NCBI GenBank assembly: GCA_035495435.1
Contig: DATJFV010000046.1
Coordinates: forward strand, 24,072-88,071
Direction: 5' to 3'
DNA length: 64,000 nt
Source of the DNA: Pseudolysinimonas sp.
Lineage (GTDB): Bacteria; Actinomycetota; Actinomycetes; Actinomycetales; Microbacteriaceae
The position numbers and the translations under genes are program-made. The first letter of the stretch is position 1; each line of letters begins with the position of its first letter. Shown here piece after piece: positions 34,847-48,540 of this stretch. Below the pieces are notes generated by a model. It saw only the letters and a program-made list of their open reading frames with translations. It had not been told where the DNA came from and ran no database searches.

Positions 34847-35293
34847 TCAGTCCTCGTCGGCCTCGTCGAGTTCGCGCGGCTTCACATACGGGTCGGCGTC
34901 GCCGGCGTACTGAGCGGATGCCGCCGCAGCCTGCGCCTCGGCGTCACGCTGGGCCGCCTCCCGCAGCAGCGAATCGATGGCGGCCGCGTTCTCGGGGATC
35001 GCGTCGGGGATGAACTCCAGTGTCGGCGTCAGCCGCGCCGTGATGTTCTTGCCCACCTCGGTGCGGAACATGCCTGTCGCCGCCTTCAGTGCCGCTGCCG
35101 AATCCGCCCGCTCCTGGTCGGTGCCATACACCGTGTAGAAGATGCTGGCGTGCTGCAGGTCGCCCGTCATCCGCACATCGGTGATGGTGACGAAGCCGAG
35201 GCGGGGATCGCGCAGCCCGCGTTCCAGCCGCTTCGCGACGATCTCGCGAATGCGGTCGGCCATCTTGGCCGCGCGATCACCCTGCCCTGGCAT
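34847..35293 (-). CDS. rbfA: ribosome-binding factor A
   Basis: RIREIVAKRLERGLRDPRLGFVTITDVRMTGDLQHASIFY. Confidence 0.93.
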   Translation of the reverse strand: MPGQGDRAAKMADRIREIVAKRLERGLRDPRLGFVTITDVRMTGDLQHASIFYTVYGTDQERADSAAALKAATGMFRTEVGKNITARLTPTLEFIPDAIPENAAAIDSLLREAAQRDAEAQAAAASAQYAGDADPYVKPRELDEADED

Positions 35294-35311
35294 CGTGTCA
35301 CCGGTGCGCGC

Positions 35312-37993
35312 TTAGGCGCGCACCTTCTCCTTCATCTCGATCGTCTCGATCTCGTCGCCGATCTGGATGTCATTGAACTTGCCCAGGCCGATACCGGCCT
35401 CGAAGTCCGTGCGCACCTCGGTGACGTCGTCCTTGAACCGCCGCAGCGAATCGATGGTGAGGTTGTCGCCCACCACGACGCCGTCACGGATGACGCGCGC
35501 CTTCGCATTGCGGGTGATCGTGCCGCTGCGGACGATTACACCGGCGATGTTGCCGGCCTTCGACGAGCGGAAGATCTCGCGGATCTCGGCGACACCCGAC
35601 TGGACCTCTTCGAACTCGGGCTTGAGCATGCCCTTGAGCGAGTTCTCGATGTCTTCCAGCGCCGCGTAGATGACGGAGTAGAAGCGCACGTCGATGCCCT
35701 CGCGAGCCGCGCGCTCACGCGCCTTGACATCCGGCCGCACGTTGAACCCGATGACGATCGCGTTGTCGATCGTCGCCAGGTCGATGTCGGACTCGGTGAC
35801 CGCACCCACACCGCGGTGCAGGATGCGCAGCTGGACGCTGTCGTCGACCTCGATCTTGAGCAGGGCCTCCTCGAGCGCCTCGACGGCACCGGAGACGTCA
35901 CCCTTGATGATGAGGTTGAGCGAGTCGACCTTGCCCTCGGCGAGCGACCGGGTGAAGTCCTCGAGCGAGATGCGCTTGCGGGCCTTCGCCAGCTGCGCGT
36001 TGCGCTCGACGGCCTCGCGCTTCTCAGCGATCTGGCGCGCGGTGCGGTCCTCCTCGGTGACGATGAAGGTGTCGCCGGCGCGAGGCACCGTCGACAGACC
36101 CTGCACCTGCACCGGGCGGGACGGCCAGGCCTCCTCGACCGGGTCGCCGTTCTCGTCGATCATCGCCCGGACGCGGCCGTACGCCATGCCCGCCACGATC
36201 GCGTCACCGACGCGGAGGGTTCCCGACTGGATCAGCACGGTCGCCACCGCGCCGCGGCCCTTGTCGAGCTTGGCCTCGATCGCGACACCGCGGGCGTCCT
36301 TGTTGGGGTTCGCACGCAGGTCGAGCCCGGCATCCGCAGTCAGAAGCACCGCGTCGAGCAGCTCGGTGATGCCCTTGTTCTGCAGGGCGCTTACGTCGAC
36401 GAACATGGTGTCGCCACCGAACTCCTCGGCGACCAGGCCGAACTCGGTCAGCTGCTGACGCACCTTCGCCGGGTTCGCGCCCTCCTTGTCGACCTTGTTG
36501 ACGGCGACCACGATCGGAACACCGGCGGCCTGCATGTGGTTCAGCGCCTCGACCGTCTGCGGCATGATGCCGTCGTCGGCCGCGACCACCAGGATCGCGA
36601 TGTCGGAGACCTGCGCACCACGGGCACGCATGGCGGTGAACGCCTCGTGACCGGGGGTGTCGATGAAGGTGATGGCGCGCTCGATGCCGTCGTGCTCGGT
36701 CCAGACCTGATACGCACCGATGTGCTGCGTGATGCCGCCGGCCTCGCCTGCGACCACGTTGGTCTGGCGGATGGCGTCGAGCAGCTTGGTCTTACCGTGG
36801 TCGACGTGGCCGACGACGGTCACCACCGGCGGGCGGATCTCCAGGTCTTCGTCGTCCTCGTCCTCGAGCTCCTGCTCGAGGTCGATGTCGAAGCCTTCGA
36901 GCAGCTCCTTGTCCTCGTCTTCGGGGCTGACGATCTGGATCTTGTAGCCCAGCTCCTCACCGAGGATGCCGAAGGTGGCGTCGTCGAGCGACTCGGTCGC
37001 CGTCGCCATCTCGCCGAGGTGGAACAGTGCGGTCACCAGCGCGCCCGGCTGCACCGAGTACTTGGTGATCTGCTCGAGCTTGTCGGCCAGGTCGGAGATC
37101 GACGCGCCGCGGCGCATGCGGATGACGGTGTTGCCGTCACCGCGGGGAATCGCGACGCCGCCGAGCGACGGCGCATCCCGCATCTCGAACTCGGCCCGCT
37201 TCGTCCGCTTCGACTTGCGCGCGCGGCTCTTGCCGCCGCCACGACCGAAGGCACCCGCGGTGCCGCCGCCGGGGCCGCGACCGCGACCGCCGCCACCACC
37301 CGGACGACCGGCGAACCCGCCGCCACCACCGGGCGCGCCGCCGGGACGCTGGAAGCCGCCACCGGCACCGCCGGGACGACCCGGCCCGCCGGGACGCTGC
37401 TGGAACGGGGCACCCGGACGACCGGGGCCGCCGGGGCGCGGGGCGCCGGGACGCGGGGTTCCGGGGCGCGGAGCCGCCGGACGCGGGATGGCGCCGCCAC
37501 CCGGACGCGGCATGCCCTGGCTGCCCGCGAACGGGTTGTTGCCGGGACGCGGGGCGCCGGGACGCGCCATGCCCTGAGTGCTGGCGAACGGGTTATTGCC
37601 GGGACGCGGGCCGGCCGGGCGCGGGGCCTCGGGGTCGGCGGGTGCTGCGGCCGCGGGCTTCTCGGCCGCGGGAGCCGGTGCAGGTGCGGGGGCCGCGGCC
37701 GCCGGAGCGGGGGCCGCAGACGGCGCCTCGGCCGCGGGCGCCTCAGCCGCGGGGGCCGGCGCCGGCGCGGGAGCCGGCTTCGCCGCCGGCTTGGCCGCAG
37801 GCTTCGCCGCCGGTGCGGCCGCCGGCTTGATGCCGTCGGCCTCGAGCGCCGCCTTCAGTCGGCGCGCGACGGGCGGCGCGATGCTCGAGGACGCGCTCTT
37901 GACGAACTCGCCCATGTCTTTGAGCTTGTCGAGCGCGATCTTGCTGTCGATGCCGAGCTCGGCCGCGACTTCGTGTACGCGTGGGTTGGCCAC
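35312..37993 (-). CDS. infB: translation initiation factor IF-2
   Basis: G-domain motifs [21 protein letters not shown] and NKVD. Ala/Pro/Gly-rich N-terminal region. Confidence 0.97.
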
Positions 37994-38069
37994 ATTTCTC
38001 CTGTTCGGGGGTCCACTCCCGATCAGGAGCGGACGCTAAAGGGTGAGGGAACTCATTTCGAGTCGCTCA

Positions 38070-38324
38070 TCAGTTGTCCATGGTCTTTTCAGCCCATTCG
38101 TTAAGGGATTCGGTATCCGTAACGGTCGTGCGCAGCGCCCGGCCGAAGGCCTTGCGCTTCACCGCGTTCTCGATGCACCCGCTCTGCGGATGCACCCACG
38201 CGCCCCTGCCCGGAAGCCTGGCCGCGGCATCCGCCACGACCTGGCCGTTGCGCGCCACCACCCTCAGCAAAGAGGATCGGGGAGCACGCTGCCGGCAACC
38301 CAGGCAGGTTCTGACGGGTTCCAT
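38070..38324 (-). CDS. ylxR: YlxR/DUF448 family RNA-binding protein
   Basis: RTCLGCRQR...GRGAWV motifs. Canonical position between nusA and infB. Confidence 0.85.
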
Positions 38325-39413: not shown

Positions 39414-40406
39414 TCACACGCGTGGCGCACCGATGGCGGCCGCGATGCGCGCGACGAGCAGGTGCGGCTCGTTCGTCACATCATCGGCGTGCACCTGCAT
39501 CACCCGAAAGCCGGCGGCCTGAAATCGTTCGCGCCGCGAGATGTCCCGGCGCCAGGCACGGGGGTCGGTGCGGTGATGATCGCCCTCGTACTCGATGACC
39601 AGACGGCGGTCGCGATACAGCACGTCGGGATGGAGGCCGACGATCTCGGGGTTCAGTTCGGGCTCGGGCAGCCCGGCGCGCACCAGCAGTAAACGTAGGC
39701 GCGTCTCCATGGGCGACTCGGCGCCGACGCGCACCTCGCGCATCGCCCCGCGGGCCCGTGCGGCGCCACGTGCTCGCGCCGGGATCGCTGCGGCGAGGCC
39801 GTCGACGGATGCGATGGCGGGCTTCCGCGCGACCCGCCGCGGAGTGACGAGGTAGTCCCCCACCGCGACCAGGTCGTCGTGGTCGAGCATGGAGGCGAGC
39901 TGCACGAACACCTGTGCGGGCCCCACGACAGGGAGGGTGCCCAGCATGGTCACCTCGAGGGCGGAGGATCGATGCCCCACGACGCCCGCACGCACGGGGC
40001 GACTGGCGCCTCCCGAGACAGTGACGTGGATGAGATGCTCGAACCGGCGGGGCAGCGGGGCCCCCCAGAGCCACGCTGCGGTCGTGTGACTGAACGCCGC
40101 ACCTGCGGGGAGCACCAGCAGAAGCGCCTCGCAGCGCTGCCGCAGGCCGACCGCCTCCCCGCCGATGATGTGGACCCCGTGATACGGATGGGTGACATCT
40201 GCGGCACGAACCCGCGAACGGGGAATGCCTGCACCGCGCAGCTCGCGCGACGCGATCGGCAGCCCGATCTGCAGCGGGTCGACCGGCGTTCGACGGGTCA
40301 CCGGGCCAGCCTGGCTCGCCTGCGCTCTCGGCGCGCGGAGTCTCCACAGCATCCGCACCCAAAGCGCGTCGAGAGGCGGATTCCGGCGGGTAATCGGCCA
40401 TCGCAC
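39414..40406 (-). CDS. DUF559 (Vsr-like endonuclease fold) domain protein
   Basis: C-terminal ESPMETRLRLLLVRAGLPEPELN...IEYEGDHHRTD...RRERFQAAGFRV pattern. The N-terminal start is uncertain. Confidence 0.72.
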   Translation of the reverse strand: MRWPITRRNPPLDALWVRMLWRLRAPRAQASQAGPVTRRTPVDPLQIGLPIASRELRGAGIPRSRVRAADVTHPYHGVHIIGGEAVGLRQRCEALLLVLPAGAAFSHTTAAWLWGAPLPRRFEHLIHVTVSGGASRPVRAGVVGHRSSALEVTMLGTLPVVGPAQVFVQLASMLDHDDLVAVGDYLVTPRRVARKPAIASVDGLAAAIPARARGAARARGAMREVRVGAESPMETRLRLLLVRAGLPEPELNPEIVGLHPDVLYRDRRLVIEYEGDHHRTDPRAWRRDISRRERFQAAGFRVMQVHADDVTNEPHLLVARIAAAIGAPRV

Positions 40407-40457: not shown

Positions 40458-42218
40458 TTAGAGCGCGGAGAGCAGGTCCGCGGCGGGGAGCTCGCGGCGC
40501 TCGCCCGAGCGGCGGTCCCAGAGTTCGACGACGCCGTCCGCAGCACCTCGGCCCGCGATGACGATCGTCGGCACGCCGAGCAGTTCCGCGTCACCGAACT
40601 TGACGCCCGGAGACACCTTGGGCCGGTCGTCGAGCAGCACCTCCCGACCCGACGACTCGAGCGCCGCCGCCACCTGCTCGGCCAGCTCCAGGGCCGCTGC
40701 GTCCTTGCCCGTCGCGATCACGTGCACATCGAACGGTGCCACCTCGGCCGGCCAGATGAGGCCCCGCTCGTCGTTGTTCGCCTCCGCGATGACCGCCATG
40801 ATGCGCGTCACGCCGATCCCGTACGAGCCCATGGTGACGGTGACCAACTTGCCGTTCTCGTCGAGCACCTGCAGCCCCAGGGCGTCGGCGTACTTGCGGC
40901 CGAGCTGGAACACGTGCCCGATCTCCATGCCGCGGGCGAGCTCCACCGGGCCGGAGCCGTCGGGCGCCGGGTCACCGGCGCGCACCTCGGCGACCTCGGC
41001 GGTGCCGTCGGAGCCGAAGTCGCGCCCGGCCACCAGCCCGAAGACGTGCTTGCCGTCGGCGTTGGCGCCGGTGATCCAGCCCGAGCCGTCGGCGACGCGC
41101 GGGTCCAGCAGGTACCGGATGCCGGTCGCCGACTCCTCGCCCAGCACGGCGCCCTGGGGTGACCAGGGCCCGATGTAGCCCTTCACCAGCAGCGGATGCT
41201 TCTCGAAGTCGGTGTCGACGGCCGCCTCGACCTCGGCGGGGGCGAACTGCACCTCGGCGCGCTTCATGTCGACCTCGCGGTCACCGGGAATGCCGACGAC
41301 CACCACCTCGCGCGTGCCGTCGAGATGCGTCAGCGCGAGCACCACGTTCTTCAGGGTGTCGGCGGCGGTCCAGGCCCGCCCGTCGGGTCGGGGGTGCTTG
41401 GCGTTGGCGACCTCGACCAGGGTCGCGATCGTGGGAGTGCCGGGCGTGTCGAGCACCTCGGCGGGCGTCAGCTTCTCGTAGGAGCGCGGCTCGGCGGGCG
41501 GGGTGACGTACGCCTCGACGTTGGCTGCGTAGCCGCCGTCCGAGCGCACGAAGGTGTCCTCGCCGATCGGGGTGGGGTGCAGGAACTCCTCCGACCGCGA
41601 CCCGCCCATCGCACCGGCGTCGGCCTGCACGATGGCGTACTCGAGGCCGAGGCGCTGGAAGATGCGCTCGTAGGCGTCGCGGTGCTGCTGGTACGACACG
41701 TCGAGCCCGGCGTCGTCGATGTCGAACGAGTACGAGTCCTTCATCGAGAACTCGCGCCCGCGCAGCAGCCCGGCGCGGGGGCGGGCCTCGTCGCGGTACT
41801 TGTCCTGGATCTGGTAGATCGACAGCGGCAGGTCCTTGTACGAGGTGTACAGGTCTTTCACCGTGAGGGTGAACACCTCTTCGTGCGTGGGCGCGAGCAG
41901 GTAGTCGGCGCCCTTGCGGTCCTTCAGCCGGAAGATCCCGTCGCCGTATTCCTCCCAGCGGCCGGTCACCTCGTAGGGTTCGCGCGGCAGCAGCGCGGGG
42001 AAGTGCACCTCCTGCGCGCCGAAACGTTCGAGCTCTTCGCGGATCACCTTCTCGATGCGGCGCCGCACCCGCAGGCCGAGCGGCAGCCAGGCGAAGATCC
42101 CCGGCGCCTGGCGCCGGATGTATCCGGCGCGGATCAGCAGGCGGTGGCTGGCAACCTCCGCGTCGGCGGGGTCGTCGCGCAGAGTGCGCACGAACAGCTG
42201 GGTCATCCGGGTAGGCAC
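40458..42218 (-). CDS. proS: proline--tRNA ligase
   Basis: 586-aa class II aaRS with an editing domain, starting [22 protein letters not shown]. Confidence 0.96.
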
Positions 42219-42253
42219 GATGCCAGCCTAATGACGCGTTCCGGATGCGATGG

Positions 42254-44500
42254 TCACGCCGTCGGCGGAACGTACGCCGAGCGCAGCCGCTCCTCGGGCA
42301 CGAGCCACTCTTCGCCCTGCTCGCCGCGGATCACCCACTGCCCGCTGCGGGCGGTCGTGGTGCCCTCGAGCGTCTCGATCACCTCTCCCGCACGGGCGGG
42401 CCGGGCCTGCACCGAGCCGGTGCGTTCATAGCGTCCTGGCCGGCCGGTCGGGCGGTGCGTGGCCTCGAAGATCCCGGCGGCGACCGAGTGCGTCGACCCG
42501 CGCTCGTCAACGACCTCCCAGTCGCCGGGCGAGCCGTGCAGGGTCTCCCCGGATGCGGTGGTCCACGACCAGGCCTCGTCGCGTTTGCGGGCGGTCACCT
42601 CTCCGCGGCGGGCGAACGTGCGCCATTGCACGTCGTCGAACGACCGGTACCCAAGCGTGGACAGCAGTTCCAGGCTGGAGCGCACGCCGTCCCGGGTCTT
42701 GTCCCGTGCCGCCTCGTCCAGTCGCTCCCAGTCGCGCAGGTCGGGGTGTCGACGACGGCGGTCGTCGCGAGCCGCGCCGTGCCGCCAGCCGTGGGATTCG
42801 AGGTGCCGCCGCCACGATTCGTGTTCGAGCTGCGCCATCCGCTCCAACTGCGTCGCGGAGGGCATGCCCGCGCGATCAGCGCCGGCGCCCCAGCTGCGTC
42901 CGACCGCGATGGCCGAGCCGAGCGTCGCGAGCACCTGGCGCACGTTGGAGGCTCGGTAGAACGCGCCGAGCTGTTCCCAGGGGCGACGGGATGCGATGGC
43001 CGGGTCGGGGTGGGCGCGGCGGTAGCGCTCGTGGCCGAGTCGCGCGATCCGTTCCCAGTTGTCGATCGGGCGACCGTTGCCGGCGTCGAGGGTGGTGCCG
43101 AAGGCGCGGACGTGGGCGAGAAGCGGCTCGGCTCCGAGCCCCACGACCTCGGCGAACCGGGAGTAGACCGGCCAGTCCGGCTGCCCCGCCCCGAGGACGG
43201 CGGCGAGACGCTGGCCGTCGGCCCCGGGCTCGCCGGTGAACACCACAGCCGGATTCGACGCACCCTCGGCGGCCTCCTCGATCCCCGCTGCGGTCGGCGC
43301 TGCGGCTGTCACCGTGGCGCGGACGCCGCCGGTGTTGCCGTAGCGCACCTGCGAGAACTCGTGCTGTTCGAGGATGGCGACGGCGTCGGGGTCGATGACC
43401 ACCACCGGCGGCACCGGCGGCTCCCCCAGCACCTCGTGCTCGCGCCCCTGCTGCGCCAGTTCGCCGAGAATGGCGAAGGTCAGCCCCGAGCGTCCGGCCA
43501 GGATGACCCGGTCCGCGCCGACACCGAGCAGATCGTCGACGACCAGCCGTGCGGTCACCTCGTCGGCGCTGATCGTGTCGACCACCCAGTCCGCGGCGCG
43601 CACGAGGTAGCGGCGGCGCCAGTCCTCCGCCTGCCAGGCATCGTCGATGCGCACCAGCACACGCACCGGGCCGCCGGCCCTGCGGCCGGCGACGGCCCCT
43701 TCGATCGAGCGCACCAGCCGCTGCGCCGCCGTGCTGTCGGGTGAGAGTACGGCGAGTGAGCGCAGGGCGCTGCCGGCGGGTCCGCGCCGGATGAGGCCGC
43801 GCACGGTGGCCGTGTTGGCGGGATCTCCGGTGACGACGCGCCAGCCCGCCGCTCGTGCGCTGCGCACCCAGGCGGCCCCGACATCCGGAGTCAGCACCAC
43901 CCGCACCGTGCCCGCGGCGCCCACCGCCAGCGCCGGCAGCAGGCCCGCAGAACTGTCGTCGACCCCCACTGCCAGGGTCACCCGCGGAGCCAGCCGCACG
44001 AGCGCACGGTCGAGCTGCCCCCGCAGCAACACCGCCACCGCTCGGGTCGCGGCGACGAACAGCACGGTCAGCACCACGAGTCGCCCGAACTGGAGGGCGA
44101 GCGGCGGGTTGTCGGGGCATGTCACCCCGTCGAACATGCTGGTGTCGTAGCTGTTGAGGACGAACGCCAGCACCCGCTGCACGACCGAGAACCAGCGTGC
44201 CTCACCGACCGGCGGGCAGCTGGCGTAGGCGGCGACGGCGAGCACCACGGCGGAGACGGTTCCCGCGGCGAGGAACACCAGGGCGAACGACAGGGAACGG
44301 TGCCGGCTGGGCCATGCCCAGGCTCCGAAGGCCAGGAACCCCAGGATGAGGGGGATCGCGACCGGCTCCCAGGCGGTGGTGTCGTTCCAGCGCGAGAGCC
44401 ACCCGGGCAGCGGTACGAAGATCGCCAGCACGAGCAGGCCGACGGCGAGGATGTAGCCGGCGAGCGCGAGGCGCGCGGCGACGCGGGCGACGGCGCTCAT
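42254..44500 (-). CDS. multi-pass membrane protein with two Rossmann-like segments, a RyR-type domain and a beta-rich C-terminal module
   Basis: Start set at ATG 44500, with an ATGA overlap with the TIR gene stop; the track's additional 34 codons are Arg-rich. About 5 N-terminal TM segments. RVILAGRSGLTFAILGELAQQG. RyR-like MAQLEHESWRRHLESHGWRHG...HPDLRDWERLDEAARDKTRDGV...LGY. Confidence 0.8.
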   Translation of the reverse strand: MSAVARVAARLALAGYILAVGLLVLAIFVPLPGWLSRWNDTTAWEPVAIPLILGFLAFGAWAWPSRHRSLSFALVFLAAGTVSAVVLAVAAYASCPPVGEARWFSVVQRVLAFVLNSYDTSMFDGVTCPDNPPLALQFGRLVVLTVLFVAATRAVAVLLRGQLDRALVRLAPRVTLAVGVDDSSAGLLPALAVGAAGTVRVVLTPDVGAAWVRSARAAGWRVVTGDPANTATVRGLIRRGPAGSALRSLAVLSPDSTAAQRLVRSIEGAVAGRRAGGPVRVLVRIDDAWQAEDWRRRYLVRAADWVVDTISADEVTARLVVDDLLGVGADRVILAGRSGLTFAILGELAQQGREHEVLGEPPVPPVVVIDPDAVAILEQHEFSQVRYGNTGGVRATVTAAAPTAAGIEEAAEGASNPAVVFTGEPGADGQRLAAVLGAGQPDWPVYSRFAEVVGLGAEPLLAHVRAFGTTLDAGNGRPIDNWERIARLGHERYRRAHPDPAIASRRPWEQLGAFYRASNVRQVLATLGSAIAVGRSWGAGADRAGMPSATQLERMAQLEHESWRRHLESHGWRHGAARDDRRRRHPDLRDWERLDEAARDKTRDGVRSSLELLSTLGYRSFDDVQWRTFARRGEVTARKRDEAWSWTTASGETLHGSPGDWEVVDERGSTHSVAAGIFEATHRPTGRPGRYERTGSVQARPARAGEVIETLEGTTTARSGQWVIRGEQGEEWLVPEERLRSAYVPPTA

Positions 44501-47271
44501 CGGTCGCACCCCAGGTCGGCGGGGGGTGCGGTGCCGATCAGGGTCGACCATTCGTCCGCGGTCAGGTCTCGGCCGGCAACCGCGCACACGGCCGTGCGCC
44601 ACTCGGTGGGCACCAGGCTGAGTCGGCTCACGGTCGAGGGTCGCGGGGGCGCGGCGATCTCCTGGGTCGACAGGATGAGGGCAGAGCCGTCGGGCGAGAA
44701 GGCCGCGATGGTGAAGCGGTTCTCCTGTTGGGGCACGGCGATCCGGCCGAATACCGTTCCGCTGCGTGCGAGGTCGAGCAGCTGCAGCGTGCCGGTCGAG
44801 CCCCCGGTCGCCAGCAGCCGGCCGTCGGCGCTCAGGGCGGGCGGCGGGTTCTGGTCGGCATCGGCGGGACGTGAGGACACCTCTGCGCCCGACGAGTCGA
44901 GCACCGTGTCGGTGCCGTCGGTGAACACGTGCAGGCGGGAGTCGCCGTCATAGGCCGCGGCGCTCGGGTCGGCGCTTTCGTAGAGGACCTCGCCGGAGGC
45001 GACGTCGACGACGCGCAGGCCGATGTCGGCGAACAGCGCGAACGCGGTCGACTGATCCGGTGCGATGCCGTAGATCAGCGGCAGCGGCCCGGGGAAGCGG
45101 TCGGCGAACGGTTTCGACGTCGTCTCGGCGCCATCGCGCTTCACGGTCATGACGGAGCCGTCGTCGGCGAGGACCGTGGCCGCGCCGGTCGAGGCGTCAG
45201 CGCGCACGCTGATCACGACTACCCCGTCGTCCAGCGGGATCGGGAGGGAGTCGGCGACCTCGAACGTCGTCGCGTCCGCCAGGTACAGCAGGTGATCGGT
45301 GGACGAGGCGACGGCGAACGTGGTGTCGTCCCACCATGCGGCCGCGGTCAGACCGAACGCGCCATCCGGGTCGATCGGCAGACCCTCCCCCGTGCTGAGG
45401 TCGACGGCCACCGGAGACCCCCCGGAGATCGCCTGCACGAGCACGCGGTCGCCGCTGTCGTTCACCGACATCACCTGCGGTCCGCAGGCCGTGCAGCCCT
45501 CGGGTACGGGCACCGCGAACTGCGTCGTGATCCGTCCCGCCTGCGACAGGTCCCAGACCAAGGCGAAGTCGCCGGTGCCGTTGACCAAAGTGTCACCGCG
45601 GAAGGTCAGCGTCTCGGCGTTCACGTTCCCGGCCCCCAGCAGCGCGATCGGCGGTTCCGGCAATGCATCGGGTGCACGCGCGGTGGACACATAGATCGCG
45701 CCCGTGTCCATCACGGCCAGCCGGGAGCCGGTGTCGTCGAGCGCCACGTCCAGCGACCCGGCGAGCTGGCTGGTGGCGACGCGATCCGCGGGATCTCCCT
45801 CGACGGTCCCGCCGTCGGACACCGAGCCGACGACGTTCCAGATCGAGTAGTTGACGGTCTTGTCCAGGGACCCGACGAGTGCGTTTCCGTCGCGCGACAC
45901 TCCGAAGACATTCGCGGCGATCCCCAGCGTGTGCTGGCCCGAGGCGATGACCGAGGCGTCGTCGAGCGAGATGCGCGCCCAGAATCCGGCCTGGTTGAAG
46001 GTGGTCAGCTCGTGATCGCCGAACCCGATGCGGCCGCCGAACGGCACGGTGCCGACGGACGTGTACACGCTCTCGCCCTGGTCCACCCCGCGGCGGAGGA
46101 GGGTCAGCCACGTGGATCGGTTCGAGACCGCCAGGTAGCTCCCGTCGGCCGAGAGCGCGACGAGGGTCGCCGGCGTCTCGTCCGCGGGAGGCGGCACGGT
46201 CGCTTCAGTGTCTCCGGCCGGGGTGACGATGCGCACCGCGTCGTCGCCGGCGACCGCGGCGACATCGGCACCGTCATCCGACACCGCGATCCAGCCGACG
46301 GGAGCGTTGAGGTCGGCCAGGACGGTGCGCTCGGCCCCGTCCCAGCGCGAGACGGCCCCGGAGGCGTCCCCGGTGAAGACGGTGCCGTCGGCGGCGACGG
46401 CGGTCGCGTTGACGCGCGCACCGACCGCGAGGGTCCTGACCAGTTGCGGACTGGTGGTCGCCAGCTGGAACAGCGCCGCCCGGGTCTGTGCGTCGTCGTT
46501 CATCCGCTGGGCCTCGACCGCGAGCAGCGATGCGGTCTGCAGGTCGGTGGCACTCAGCGTGATCGCTTGTGCCGCCAGCTGCCGGGCCAACGCGATGCGC
46601 GCCTGCTCCGCGGCTGCGTTGCCGTTCACCACAGCGATGACGGTGGCGACGAGGGATGCCACGAGTAGCGCCGAGAGCGCGATCACCCCGCCACGCGCGA
46701 GACGCAGTGCGCGGCGGCGCTGCTGCACGTTCTCGCCGATCAGCTCGTCGCGCTCCATGCCGCGGATGGCGGACGCGAGGTCGGCCACGCGCTCGTTGAA
46801 CCGGGGGTCTGCGGTGCCGAGCGACCCCTCCGCCTCGAACCAGGGCATCTCGACCCAGCGCGGCTCCTCGGGGAACGCCTTCGAGAGCGCCCGGTTGACC
46901 GCCGTCGACCGCTTCCAGTCGAAGTCGTTCGTCTTCGGGTCCCAGTACATCTCGCCCTCGTCGAGGACGAGCAGGATGCGGTCAGCCGACTTGTGCTCGA
47001 GCCACCAGGTGATCTCGGTGGTCACGTACTGCGACGCGGCGGACTTCGGGCTGCACAGCAGGATGAACCAGTCAGCCTCGGTCAGCCCGCGCTCGATGTT
47101 CGACCAGAGGCCCGTGTTGGCCGACATTGTCGCGTCGTCGAGGAACACCCGCGACGAGCGCAGTCGGTACCAGGGCTTCGCGAACCGCTCGATGCCGTTG
47201 CGCAGGGCGACCGCGAGCCCGCTCGACGCCGAGCGCGAGTAGGAGATGAAGGCGTCGAACCGGGCTGCCAC
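44497..47271 (-). CDS. TIR-domain protein with a single TM helix and a large C-terminal beta-propeller (WD40-like) region
   Basis: GTG start. TIR motifs FDAFISYSRS and DWFILLCSPKSAASQYVTTEITWW. TM helix GVIALSALLVASLVATVIAVV preceded by QQRRRALRLAR. More than 10 blade-like DG repeats. C-terminal CAVAGRDLTADEW...C motif. Confidence 0.85.
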   Translation of the reverse strand: MAARFDAFISYSRSASSGLAVALRNGIERFAKPWYRLRSSRVFLDDATMSANTGLWSNIERGLTEADWFILLCSPKSAASQYVTTEITWWLEHKSADRILLVLDEGEMYWDPKTNDFDWKRSTAVNRALSKAFPEEPRWVEMPWFEAEGSLGTADPRFNERVADLASAIRGMERDELIGENVQQRRRALRLARGGVIALSALLVASLVATVIAVVNGNAAAEQARIALARQLAAQAITLSATDLQTASLLAVEAQRMNDDAQTRAALFQLATTSPQLVRTLAVGARVNATAVAADGTVFTGDASGAVSRWDGAERTVLADLNAPVGWIAVSDDGADVAAVAGDDAVRIVTPAGDTEATVPPPADETPATLVALSADGSYLAVSNRSTWLTLLRRGVDQGESVYTSVGTVPFGGRIGFGDHELTTFNQAGFWARISLDDASVIASGQHTLGIAANVFGVSRDGNALVGSLDKTVNYSIWNVVGSVSDGGTVEGDPADRVATSQLAGSLDVALDDTGSRLAVMDTGAIYVSTARAPDALPEPPIALLGAGNVNAETLTFRGDTLVNGTGDFALVWDLSQAGRITTQFAVPVPEGCTACGPQVMSVNDSGDRVLVQAISGGSPVAVDLSTGEGLPIDPDGAFGLTAAAWWDDTTFAVASSTDHLLYLADATTFEVADSLPIPLDDGVVVISVRADASTGAATVLADDGSVMTVKRDGAETTSKPFADRFPGPLPLIYGIAPDQSTAFALFADIGLRVVDVASGEVLYESADPSAAAYDGDSRLHVFTDGTDTVLDSSGAEVSSRPADADQNPPPALSADGRLLATGGSTGTLQLLDLARSGTVFGRIAVPQQENRFTIAAFSPDGSALILSTQEIAAPPRPSTVSRLSLVPTEWRTAVCAVAGRDLTADEWSTLIGTAPPADLGCDR

Positions 47272-47291
47272 GCCCCGAGACTAGCGGGGCG
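47271..47291 (-). promoter_or_regulatory. stem-loop abutting the TIR start codon, with a -10-like TAGTCT in its loop (possible leaderless promoter)
   Basis: CGCCCCG/CGGGGCG 7-bp stem. On the minus strand TAGTCT (47283-47278) ends 6 nt before the GTG. No Shine-Dalgarno sequence is visible. Confidence 0.3.
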
Positions 47292-47296
47292 GGTTT

Positions 47297-47393
47297 CGAT
47301 ACGCGGCCTGCGGCCGCTCCTCAACCAGCGATACGGCGGCCTGCGGCCGGTACTCAACCAGCGATACGCGGCCTGCGGCCGCTACTCAACCAG
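47297..47393 (-). repeat. three tandem 32-33-bp copies of the ispG 3' end plus a GC hairpin
   Basis: Units at 47297-47328, 47329-47361 and 47362-47393. Minus-strand unit CTGGTTGAGTAGCGGCCGCAGGCCGCGTATCG. The third unit contains the real ispG stop (47386-47388). Each unit carries a GCGGCC-gca-GGCCGC hairpin (CCGGCC-gca-GGCCGC, 5 bp, in the middle copy). Confidence 0.85.
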
Positions 47394-48540
47394 CGGTGAC
47401 GACCTCGGGGCTGCCCAGCTCGCCGGGAGGCATCTCGGCCGCGAGACGGTTCGCCTCCTCGATGAGGGTCTGCACGATCTCCGACTCGGGGACCGTCTTG
47501 ATCACCTCACCCTTGACGAAGATCTGGCCCTTGCCGTTGCCCGAGGCGACGCCGAGGTCGGCCTCACGGGCCTCCCCCGGACCGTTGACGACGCAGCCCA
47601 TCACCGCGACGCGCAGCGGCACCGTCATGCCCTGCAGTCCCTCGGTGACGTCGTTGGCGAGCGTGTAGACATCGACCTGCGCCCGTCCGCACGAGGGGCA
47701 CGACACGATCTCGAGCTTGCGCTCGCGCAGGTTCAGCGACTGCAGGATCTGCAGGCCCACCTTCACCTCCTGCGCCGGCGGGGCGGACAGCGAGACGCGG
47801 ATGGTGTCGCCGATGCCCTCCGAGAGCAGGATGCCGAACGCGGTCGCGCTCTTGATCGTTCCCTGGAACTCGGGGCCGGCCTCCGTCACACCGAGGTGCA
47901 GCGGCCAGTCGCCGCGCTCAGCCAGCATGCGGTACGCCTTGACCATCACGACGGGATCGTTGTGCTTGACCGAGATCTTGAAGTCGTGGAAGTCGTGCTC
48001 CTCGAACAGCGACGCCTCCCAGACGGCGCTCTCGACGAGAGCCTCGGCGGTCGCCTTGCCGTACTTCTCCAGCAGGCGCGGGTCGAGCGAGCCCGCGTTG
48101 ACGCCGATCCGGATGCTGACCCCGGCATCCTTGGCGGCCTTCGCGATCGCGCCCACCTGGTCGTCGAACTTGCGGATGTTGCCGGGATTCACCCGCACGG
48201 CGCCGCAGCCGGCGTCGATGGCCTGGAACACGTACTTCGGCTGGAAGTGGATGTCGGCAATGACCGGGATCTGCGACTTCTTGGCGATGATGTGCAGCAC
48301 GTCGGCGTCGTCCTGCGACGGCACGGCCACACGCACGATGTCGCACCCCGATGCGGTGAGCTCGGCGATCTGCTGCAGCGTCGCGTTGATGTTCGTCGTC
48401 GGGGTGGTGCACATCGACTGCACGCTGACCGGGGCGTCGCCCCCGACCAGCACCTTGCCGACCTTGATCTGGCGGCTCTTGCGACGGGGTGCGAGGACTT
48501 CGGGGGCCGGTTTCGGCATCCCGATGTTGACGGCTGGCAT
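47386..48540 (-). CDS. ispG: 4-hydroxy-3-methylbut-2-en-1-yl diphosphate synthase
   Basis: I checked the track translation codon by codon against the DNA. Motifs SMCTTPT and CPSCGR. Confidence 0.97.

Follow-up and report, generated by a model that had tools for sequence, protein, structure and literature searches.

A channel-like RyR-domain membrane protein linked to TIR genes in Actinomycetota: a candidate effector of a Thoeris-like module

Introduction

Phage proteins with a RyR domain (Pfam PF02026) bind or cleave cyclic ADP-ribose (cADPR), 2'cADPR, and 3'cADPR, as reported in two preprints of 2026 (PMC13232231; 10.64898/2026.06.04.730250). RyDEP, which is gp78 of mycobacteriophage DyoEdafos, is a glycosidase with a catalytic dyad of His75 and Asp117, the latter being the general acid, and it contacts TIR-made cADPR signals through H75, W78, H100, and D117; six of the eight RyDEP homologues tested bind cADPR signals, and two have been characterized as sponges (PMC13232231). 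RyR Tad, which is gp68 of Pectobacterium phage CB1, sequesters 1''-3' glycocyclic ADP-ribose (gcADPR), 1''-2' gcADPR, and cADPR, with H129/W132, K147/H154, and K170/D171 as contact residues (10.64898/2026.06.04.730250). Here we describe a bacterial membrane protein of 748 residues with a RyR domain, encoded at 42254-44500 on the minus strand, according to the open reading frame (ORF) list, of a 64,000-nucleotide stretch of a Pseudolysinimonas sp. genome (Microbacteriaceae; assembly GCA_035495435.1, contig DATJFV010000046.1, positions 24,072 to 88,071), hereafter the window. A gene for a TIR protein lies directly beside it, and we give about an even chance (a probability near 0.5) to the reading that the RyR-domain protein is a channel effector gated by the TIR product, so that the two genes would form a Thoeris-like module with this protein as its effector.

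The Thoeris systems described in a recent survey include type X, with an effector predicted to be an ion channel and a signal that has yet to be assigned (10.64898/2025.12.03.692087). TIR domains of CBASS, Pycsar, and pAgo systems deplete NAD+ as effectors and were for this reason removed from the survey, and RyR is not mentioned in its available text and tables (10.64898/2025.12.03.692087). Our literature search for bacterial systems of TIR with RyR channels, for TrkA-RyR, and for TIR-PknH returned only the two preprints on phage proteins and the survey of Thoeris systems. Neither of these preprints names a host protein that uses a RyR domain, and the family described here would supply such a host-side receptor.

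The RyR module and its pocket

The RyR-domain protein matches Pfam RyR over residues 552-619 with 43.7 bits against a gathering score of 27.4 (E 3e-11), and the same model matches 36 of 36 homologues. A sequence search of the PDB returned only repeats of RyR1-3 and a Bacteroides RyR protein. Foldseek alignments to crystal structures of isolated Repeat12 domains (6uhh, 6uhi, and 9l91; 164-186 columns, TM-scores of 0.50-0.62) lead us to take the two halves, residues 478-545 and 549-620, as one Repeat12-like unit, which phage RyR proteins also match structurally. The bipartite RyR-type region that the initial annotation had placed at residues 478-620 is thus borne out, with a Pfam score above threshold and matches to Repeat12 crystal structures, and its remark that no function of RyR repeats had been established in bacteria or phages is now outdated (PMC13232231; 10.64898/2026.06.04.730250). 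The Pfam match and the conservation across about 400 clusters mean that the RyR-domain protein is real beyond chance.

The second repeat (residues 549-620) holds the canonical nucleotide pocket, formed by H560, W563, R578, H585, and K601, with T602 at the position of the Asp. In a direct alignment these five residues fall on the contact positions of RyR Tad gp68, and the spacing is that of the pocket pattern (HxxW followed by a basic residue at +18, a His at +25, and a Lys at +41). The H, W, R, and H of the pocket are near-invariant among 43 representatives of the family. The Asp position is occupied in the same set by Thr (19), Ala (8), Asn (8), Ser (3), Val (2), or Asp (2), that is, by Thr, Ala, Asn, or Ser in 38 of 43. 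Because the general-acid Asp is replaced by Thr or Ala, the module is predicted to bind and not to hydrolyse its ligand, and the loss of this Asp may shift ligand specificity. An identity as a RyDEP-type glycosidase was considered and rejected, as the catalytic His is kept (H560) and the Asp of the dyad is replaced by T602.

The only characterized non-animal RyR-domain proteins are an enzyme and sponges (PMC13232231; 10.64898/2026.06.04.730250), and the equivalent of the catalytic His is present in the window protein. The module might likewise degrade or sequester the TIR signal, as RyDEP and RyR Tad do, and serve the host as an off-switch or buffer. We consider this highly improbable, however, since an Asp stands at the general-acid position in 2 of the 43 representatives and a Thr in the window protein, four transmembrane (TM) helices and a tandem RCK ring would be superfluous for a sponge, and no other effector gene lies alongside the pair.

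RyR-domain ORFs are present in 302 phage records, many of them from actinophages (e.g., Arthrobacter, 26, and Gordonia, 12), the hosts of which belong to the phylum of the family. A tblastn search of 50,697 phage records with the RyR region of the window protein gave nothing at E<=0.01.

Linkage of the family to TIR genes

A word-indexed search found 41 close homologues in metagenome-assembled genomes of Microbacteriaceae type, and an exhaustive profile search found 402 representatives at E<=1e-30, more than 100 of which were matched end to end. The family extends across Actinomycetota in about 400 clusters at 50% identity, with named members from Microlunatus, Propionibacteriaceae, Nocardioides, and Cellulomonas; Nocardioides halotolerans DSM 19273 and Microlunatus panaciterrae are among the culturable carriers. 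TIR domains were sought in the six-frame ORFs of 107 non-redundant loci (numbered with an L below) and were found within 3.5 kb in 32 of them; among the loci flanked by at least 1.5 kb in either direction, 21 of 59 were TIR-linked. Near flanks contained 34 TIR domains in 530 kb and far flanks 2 in 319 kb, which is an approximately tenfold difference in density.

The TIR gene lies upstream, downstream, or divergent, and the two genes often overlap. The ATGA overlap of the window, which suggests translational coupling, is also present in L008, L029, and L030. At least five TIR architectures adjoin family genes (Table 1), two of them receptor-like (TIR-TM-propeller and TIR-TM-PknH_C), and the adjacency is retained while the partner architecture changes. 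The TIR-linked members form two large clades in a neighbour-joining tree. The TIR-less Nocardioides loci were considered as an argument against linkage and set aside, being one shallow clade nested within TIR-linked lineages. No TIR fusions ("Rosetta stone" proteins) were revealed when 10 relatives of greater length or variant form were scanned with Pfam.

The TIR domain of the partner in the window (residues 1-150) was recognized by Pfam as TIR_2 (E 5e-7) and by PADLOC as ThsB-like. PADLOC gave no system-level match at the locus. The putative catalytic residue of the TIR domain is Glu86, in a Glu column kept in the ten aligned TIR domains. One strong TM helix at about residues 194-216, preceded by an Arg-rich stretch, is evident from hydropathy, and the C-terminal ~700 residues have WD40-type propeller matches in Pfam. 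The predicted topology places the TIR domain in the cytoplasm and the propeller outside it, as in a Toll-like receptor. TIR partners with this topology carry a beta-propeller sensor in the window and a PknH_C sensor in nine metagenome loci (e.g., L081:2758-4419 (-)), and such predicted topologies suggest outside-in TIR signalling in Actinomycetota.

We place the TIR protein upstream and the RyR-domain protein downstream because the TIR partners have sensor modules of their own, because experiments have established the RyR domain as a receptor for TIR products, and because the TIR sensors are exchanged around an unchanging effector, as in Thoeris. In the reverse arrangement, the RyR-domain protein would sense a phage-derived or metabolic nucleotide or the state of the membrane and would activate an NAD+-depleting TIR effector, for which the TIR effectors of CBASS, Pycsar, and pAgo named in the Thoeris survey are a precedent. 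There is little chance of this in our judgement, since every TIR partner has its own sensor (propeller, PknH_C, or a STAND NTPase with WD40, TPR, or HTH) and the RyR domain, as a known receptor of TIR products, belongs downstream. The initial annotation had proposed the protein either as the output of the TIR enzyme or as the sensor half of the pair. The latter is the less likely for the reason of the partners' own sensor domains; the former gains from the ligands of phage RyR proteins, the retained contact residues, and the at least five TIR architectures, but about two thirds of the family lack a TIR neighbor.

Two observations concern members without a TIR neighbor. One 163-kb contig of GCA_964435735.1 (L003 and L031) carries a RyR-family gene without a TIR neighbor and, ~90 kb away, a TIR-TM-propeller gene with 54% identity to that of the window, so the pair may also act in trans. 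A conserved polytopic membrane protein of 534-553 residues with no Pfam or NCBIfam match is encoded convergently and directly downstream of TIR-unlinked members in L070 (8370-10031 (-)) and 14 other loci; this link may be functional or only syntenic.

The membrane part and the RCK-like domains

AlphaFold2 models were made as single chains, for the full-length protein from 36 homologues and separately for residues 1-472. Both were confident, with a predicted local distance difference test score (pLDDT) of 88.3 and a predicted TM-score (pTM) of 0.70 for the former and a pLDDT of 88.0 for the latter. The order of elements in the model is three helices, a short helix followed by a loop and a long helix, two alpha/beta domains (174-326 and 331-468), an all-alpha module (481-615), and two small beta domains (619-748). 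The sequence strings and residue numbers quoted in the initial annotation all agreed with the sequence (FSVVQ...AVAVLL, residues 104-159; RVTLAVGVDDSSAG, residues 173-186; RVILAGRSGLTFAILGELAQQG, residues 331-352; SPGDWEV, residues 657-663; SGQW, residues 719-722; and residues 478-620 at nt 42641-43069). Its three hydrophobic segments (about residues 8-30, 47-63, and 70-93) correspond to the model helices 3-28, 45-62, and 71-94, and the helix-loop-helix that it had described as pore-like, lacking TVGYG, recurs as a layout in the AlphaFold2 model with LNSYD as its loop.

The pore-loop-like element consists in the model of Cys95, a short helix (102-114), a loop (115-133; LNSYD...C128...P133), and an inner helix (134-170) that enters the cytoplasm. 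Loop charges are consistent with an N-terminus-in topology, which puts the short helix and the loop outside the cytoplasm and the residues beyond 157 inside. Computation shows a predicted inner-membrane protein with four membrane helices, the last two of which are placed around a re-entrant short helix and loop, and this modelled layout resembles the M1-P-M2 arrangement of pore-loop cation channels without the K+ signature.

The loop has the family motif L-F-[VL]-G-[SN]-x-[ED]-x-P-F-G, and among 43 diverse representatives Gly is found at position 116 in 39 and Pro133, at the start of the inner helix, is invariant. Cys95 and Cys128 flank the element and co-vary (both present in 37 of the 43 sequences, neither in 4, and one in 2), which fits an extracytoplasmic disulfide. 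The pore-loop region is clearly under selection, its predicted layout is that of a P-loop-like channel, and we infer a pore function.

Foldseek with the model of residues 1-472 ranked full-length MthK first (6oly_A, E 8.8e-5) over 259 columns; the channel TM-scores were 0.35-0.38, the output not giving alignment ranges. Further matches were another MthK structure (6ux7), Slo2.2, the K+/H+ exchanger KefC, the TrkA gating ring, and hSlo1. The tandem-RCK gating ring of TrkA (4j9v_B) aligned over 377 columns with a root-mean-square deviation (rmsd) of 5.1 A, and isolated MthK RCK domains aligned over 154 columns with an rmsd of 3.5 A. The full-length model matched GsuK over 408 columns. Judging from these models, the likeness of the N-terminal half to RCK-gated channels is at the level of the fold only.

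A paralog of 593 residues, present in six metagenome loci beside the family gene, combines TrkA_N (Pfam E 1.2e-16), a Slo-like RCK domain, and RyR. The paralog L064:1469-3250 aligned with residues 74-598 of the family (hhalign probability 98.7%, E 2e-16), and its TrkA_N domain fell on the first Rossmann-like domain. Because a paralog with a Pfam-significant TrkA_N aligns there, this first domain is regarded as homologous to RCK/TrkA_N. Among the 36 homologues themselves, TrkA_N matched five weakly (best E 0.01). The turn between beta1 and alphaA of the second domain, G-x-S-x-L-T-F-A, is similar to CGWSESTL of MthK.

The paralog gene lies immediately upstream of the family gene (L064:1469-3250 (+); also L047, L065, L069, L078, and L082), so that the two form a tandem pair of RyR-domain channel-like genes. 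It encodes 2 TM helices and a pore-like segment, FFVNSP...VPWALNIARF, which is similar to LAFVLNSYD...PPLALQFGRL. The best-conserved stretch of the whole family is RIDDAWQAEDWRRRY (residues 284-298, nt 43607-43651) in the first RCK-like domain, and this was the pattern used in the searches for family loci. Its acidic cluster might be an ion-binding or interface site.

Proposed mechanism and alternatives

In the proposed mechanism, the TIR receptor would sense an envelope cue (e.g., phage attack or envelope damage), and the cytoplasmic STAND-type TIR partners of other lineages would sense an intracellular one. The TIR protein would oligomerize and turn NAD+ into an ADP-ribose-derived signal, for example a cADPR isomer. 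This signal would be bound by the HxxW...H pocket of the RyR module, without cleavage given the change of Asp to Thr or Ala, and the conformational change would be relayed via the RCK ring to the inner helices. A probably tetrameric pore would then open, and cation flux or depolarization would lead to growth arrest (abortive infection) or a stress response.

A more specific proposal is tentative, and we hold it to be possible but doubtful as a whole: a protein shaped like a Toll-like receptor would make a cADPR-type messenger that directly gates a cation-permeable (possibly Ca2+) channel through a RyR Repeat12 module, and the RyR sponges and glycosidases of phages would stem from this host domain or be directed at it. 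A host RyR receptor for TIR signals would explain the frequent RyR genes of actinophages, and the family would offer a simple prokaryotic system for direct channel gating by cADPR-type molecules via Repeat12. TIR immunity would gain, as an effector class, an RCK-gated pore with a non-canonical filter. The single-TM TIR partners with an external sensor (beta-propeller or PknH_C) suggest, in addition, receptor-like outside-in signalling in bacteria.

Several observations weigh against the TIR-gated channel effector, the first group of them being genomic. About two thirds (~70%) of the family loci have no adjacent TIR gene, yet retain the RyR pocket, so that a common adenine nucleotide could be the ligand. 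More than 442 hits belong to the TIR-propeller family, which also occurs without a RyR-protein partner. In the window the gene order is ispG, TIR, RyR-domain protein, proS, and nusA, and it is syntenic in a relative with 46% identity; the placement between ispG and proS looks like long vertical inheritance and not like a defence island, and no defence genes were recognized near the locus. PADLOC and NCBIfam gave no match for the RyR-domain protein. An Asp contributes to the binding of gcADPR by RyR Tad, and this residue is missing at the aligned position.

These genomic points bear on a serious rival, namely physiological non-immune signalling or gating by a common adenine nucleotide. The protein would then be a housekeeping cation channel of Actinomycetota, gated by ATP, ADP, NAD+, or ADP-ribose via the RyR and RCK domains and serving ion homeostasis or metabolic sensing; the TIR gene would be a secondary, lineage-specific addition or would act indirectly through the levels of NAD+ and ADP-ribose. 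Whole clades without TIR lie in conserved housekeeping contexts (cobT/cobS, DAHP synthase, an acyltransferase, nusA, and a major facilitator superfamily gene), the window locus itself is set between ispG and proS, and conservation of the pocket residues is the same whether or not a member is TIR-linked. GsuK, the channel of closest architecture, is reported to respond in its gating to ADP/NAD+ and Ca2+. Adenine ligands, ATP among them, are bound by mammalian Repeat12 (PMC13232231), and the Foldseek matches include 7tzc, 6uhh, and 9l91. We nevertheless think the housekeeping channel unlikely, since the roughly tenfold enrichment of TIR domains near the gene, and the recurrence of at least five unrelated TIR architectures beside the family with overlapping start and stop codons, are hard to explain without a direct functional link.

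The second group of adverse observations is structural. Neither a TVGYG-type filter nor Pfam Ion_trans_2 is present in the window protein, Ion_trans has no match in the 36 homologues, and the loop after the short helix of the window protein is VLNSYD, with no Gly in the "filter" LNSYD. Pfam TrkA_N (PF02254) does not match the window protein at E<=1, and a sequence profile of residues 1-472 against all PDB chains returned only noise (E >= 0.13). An hhalign comparison with an MthK sequence was insignificant (probability <1%), its sole alignment being a short local stretch at beta1-alphaA of the RCK domain, on the second domain of our protein. There is no GxGxxG in either Rossmann-like domain, where the corresponding sequences are VGVDDSSAG and AGRSGLTF and only the first Gly is conserved in the family. 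"Glycine-loop-like", as the initial annotation had it, was thus an overstatement, and its RCK/TrkA-like Rossmann segments hold through the Foldseek matches and the hhalign alignment of the paralog but find no support in Pfam TrkA_N or in a GxGxxG loop. The comparison with K+ channel and RCK structures that it had proposed was similarly divided, with MthK ranked first by Foldseek and noise from the PDB profile search.

The absence of a canonical filter and of an Ion_trans match, together with the modest Foldseek TM-scores to channels (0.35-0.47) and the fact that two partner types are themselves membrane proteins, would also suit a membrane-anchored regulator or scaffold with no pore. Its TM part would be an anchor and may contact the single-pass TIR receptor, and its RCK-RyR-PGDYG part would bind the signal and control another target or feed back on the TIR protein. 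This appears quite unlikely to us, because a helix, short helix, loop, and inner helix leading into tandem RCK domains is the specific layout of RCK channels, which top the fold search, and because the conserved loop motif and the co-varying Cys pair exceed what is expected of a mere anchor. A channel effector gated by the TIR product therefore remains our preferred reading, at the even odds given above.

Gene features, C-terminal domains, and neighboring genes

The features of the locus and the partner architectures of the family are given in Table 1. The listed ORF of the RyR-domain protein extends in frame to a GTG at 44602 (42254..44602 (-)), the GC content at third codon positions (GC3) being 0.68 in the extension and 0.90 inside the gene, and the N-termini of homologues all coincide with the ATG at 44500. 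The GTG was ruled out as the start codon by this low GC3 and by the homologue N-termini. A promoter and terminator scan of 41900-47700 gave no sites.

Table 1. Features of the RyR-domain protein gene and its TIR partner in the window, and partner architectures across the family loci
Feature	Position (nt) or loci	Strand	Basis
RyR-domain, channel-like membrane protein gene	42254..44500	(-)	Stop codon 42254-42256; start set by homologue alignment and GC3
ATGA overlap of TIR gene stop and RyR-protein gene start	44497..44500	(-)	Direct sequence read
Three TM helices, residues 3-94 (TM1 3-28, TM2 45-62, TM3 or "outer helix" 71-94)	44219..44494	(-)	AlphaFold2 secondary structure
Pore-loop-like element, residues 95-170	43991..44218	(-)	AlphaFold2 models, Foldseek, family motif
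First RCK/TrkA_N-like Rossmann domain, residues 172-326	43523..43987	(-)	Foldseek to MthK RCK and TrkA ring; hhalign to paralog TrkA_N
Second RCK-like Rossmann domain, residues 329-470	43091..43516	(-)	Model; TrkA tandem-RCK ring; weak local hhalign; weak TrkA_N match in 5 of 36 homologues
RyR Repeat12-like module, two repeats, residues 478-620	42641..43069	(-)	Pfam, PDB sequence search, Foldseek, alignment to gp68
Two PGDYG-like small beta domains, residues 622-748, motifs GDWEV and GQWV	42257..42637	(-)	Pfam in homologues, Foldseek
Partner gene, 924 residues: TIR, one TM helix, beta-propeller region	44497..47271	(-)	Pfam, PADLOC, hydropathy
TIR-TM-propeller partner	Window, L004, L008-L010, L024, L029, L030, L048		
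TIR-TM-PknH_C partner	Nine loci, e.g., L081		
TIR-nSTAND1-WD40 partner	e.g., L052		
TIR-NB-ARC/AAA_16-HTH (STAND-HTH) partner	L001, L028		
TIR-only partner of 228 residues	L006		
DUF4062-TPR partner	L025		

Beta structure spans residues 619-748 in the AlphaFold2 model, in line with the two PGDW/SGQW motifs that had been noted in the last 128 residues and that are found at 657-663 and 719-722. The window protein scores 19.8 bits with Pfam PGDYG (PF14083), below the gathering score of 27, and 26 of the 36 homologues match (best E 7.6e-8). Phage PGDYG proteins match the C-terminus in Foldseek (rmsd 1.2 A over 51 columns), and tblastn of the PGDYG region against phage records gave only weak matches. 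The PGDYG-like part is considered accessory because some relatives stop just past the RyR module. A giant protein, P0162 (3743 residues), has 17 separate stretches that match the PGDYG-like profile and seems to consist of PGDYG repeats in a long series.

Between proS and nusA the window contains an ORF of 330 residues (39414-40406 (-)) with matches to the endonuclease-like DUF559 and REase_MTES_1575; the relative locus L004 has no gene at this position, so the ORF looks like a sporadic insertion. Very long ORFs antisense to infB, the TIR gene, and others (e.g., 35150-38104 (+) and 44929-46668 (+)) are artefacts of ORF listing, typical of ~70% GC.

Comparison with known systems

The locus is similar to Thoeris in pairing two genes, one of them for a TIR protein with a putative catalytic Glu, in having an adjacent membrane effector with a domain that, by analogy, could bind TIR-derived ADP-ribose signals, and in combining a constant effector with exchanged TIR modules. 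It differs from Thoeris in that the effector family is unrelated to curated Thoeris effectors, as judged by the lack of PADLOC and NCBIfam matches, that the sensor is a RyR Repeat12 module and not SLOG, Macro, or similar, and that the partners are large receptor-like or STAND proteins and not a small ThsB. The locus of the window lies, moreover, among housekeeping genes.

With RyDEP and RyR Tad the family shares Pfam PF02026 and its fold, and the HxxW, basic, His, and Lys contact positions are conserved. Those two proteins are soluble homodimers of small size, with which the phage cleaves or sequesters the signal, whereas two repeats are placed here in one chain of a 748-residue host membrane protein. 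The Asp of the phage proteins (D117 in RyDEP and D171 in RyR Tad) is replaced by Thr, and the predicted role is sensing, not evasion.

RCK-gated channels (e.g., MthK, GsuK with tandem RCK domains per subunit, Slo1/Slo2, and the TrkA ring) likewise have an inner helix that continues directly into RCK-type Rossmann domains, and GsuK, Slo, and TrkA share the presence of two such domains per chain and are among the best Foldseek matches. The family differs from these channels in its two extra N-terminal TM helices, its conserved extracytoplasmic Cys pair, its lack of TVGYG (LNSYD in the window protein and F-V-G-N-x-E-x-P-F-G in the wider family) and of GxGxxG, and the added C-terminal RyR and PGDYG modules, and the likeness is undetectable by sequence.

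In animals, cADPR is made by SARM1, which is a TIR enzyme, or by CD38, and direct gating of RyR by cADPR is, to our knowledge, unproven. Animal RyR and the family described here have in common a Repeat12 adenine-nucleotide pocket on a cation channel, which is a predicted one in our case, together with its pocket residues and a TIR enzyme able to make cADPR-type molecules (PMC13232231). Repeat12 lies at the periphery of animal RyR, the two differ entirely in pore and general architecture, and homology is confined to the RyR module.

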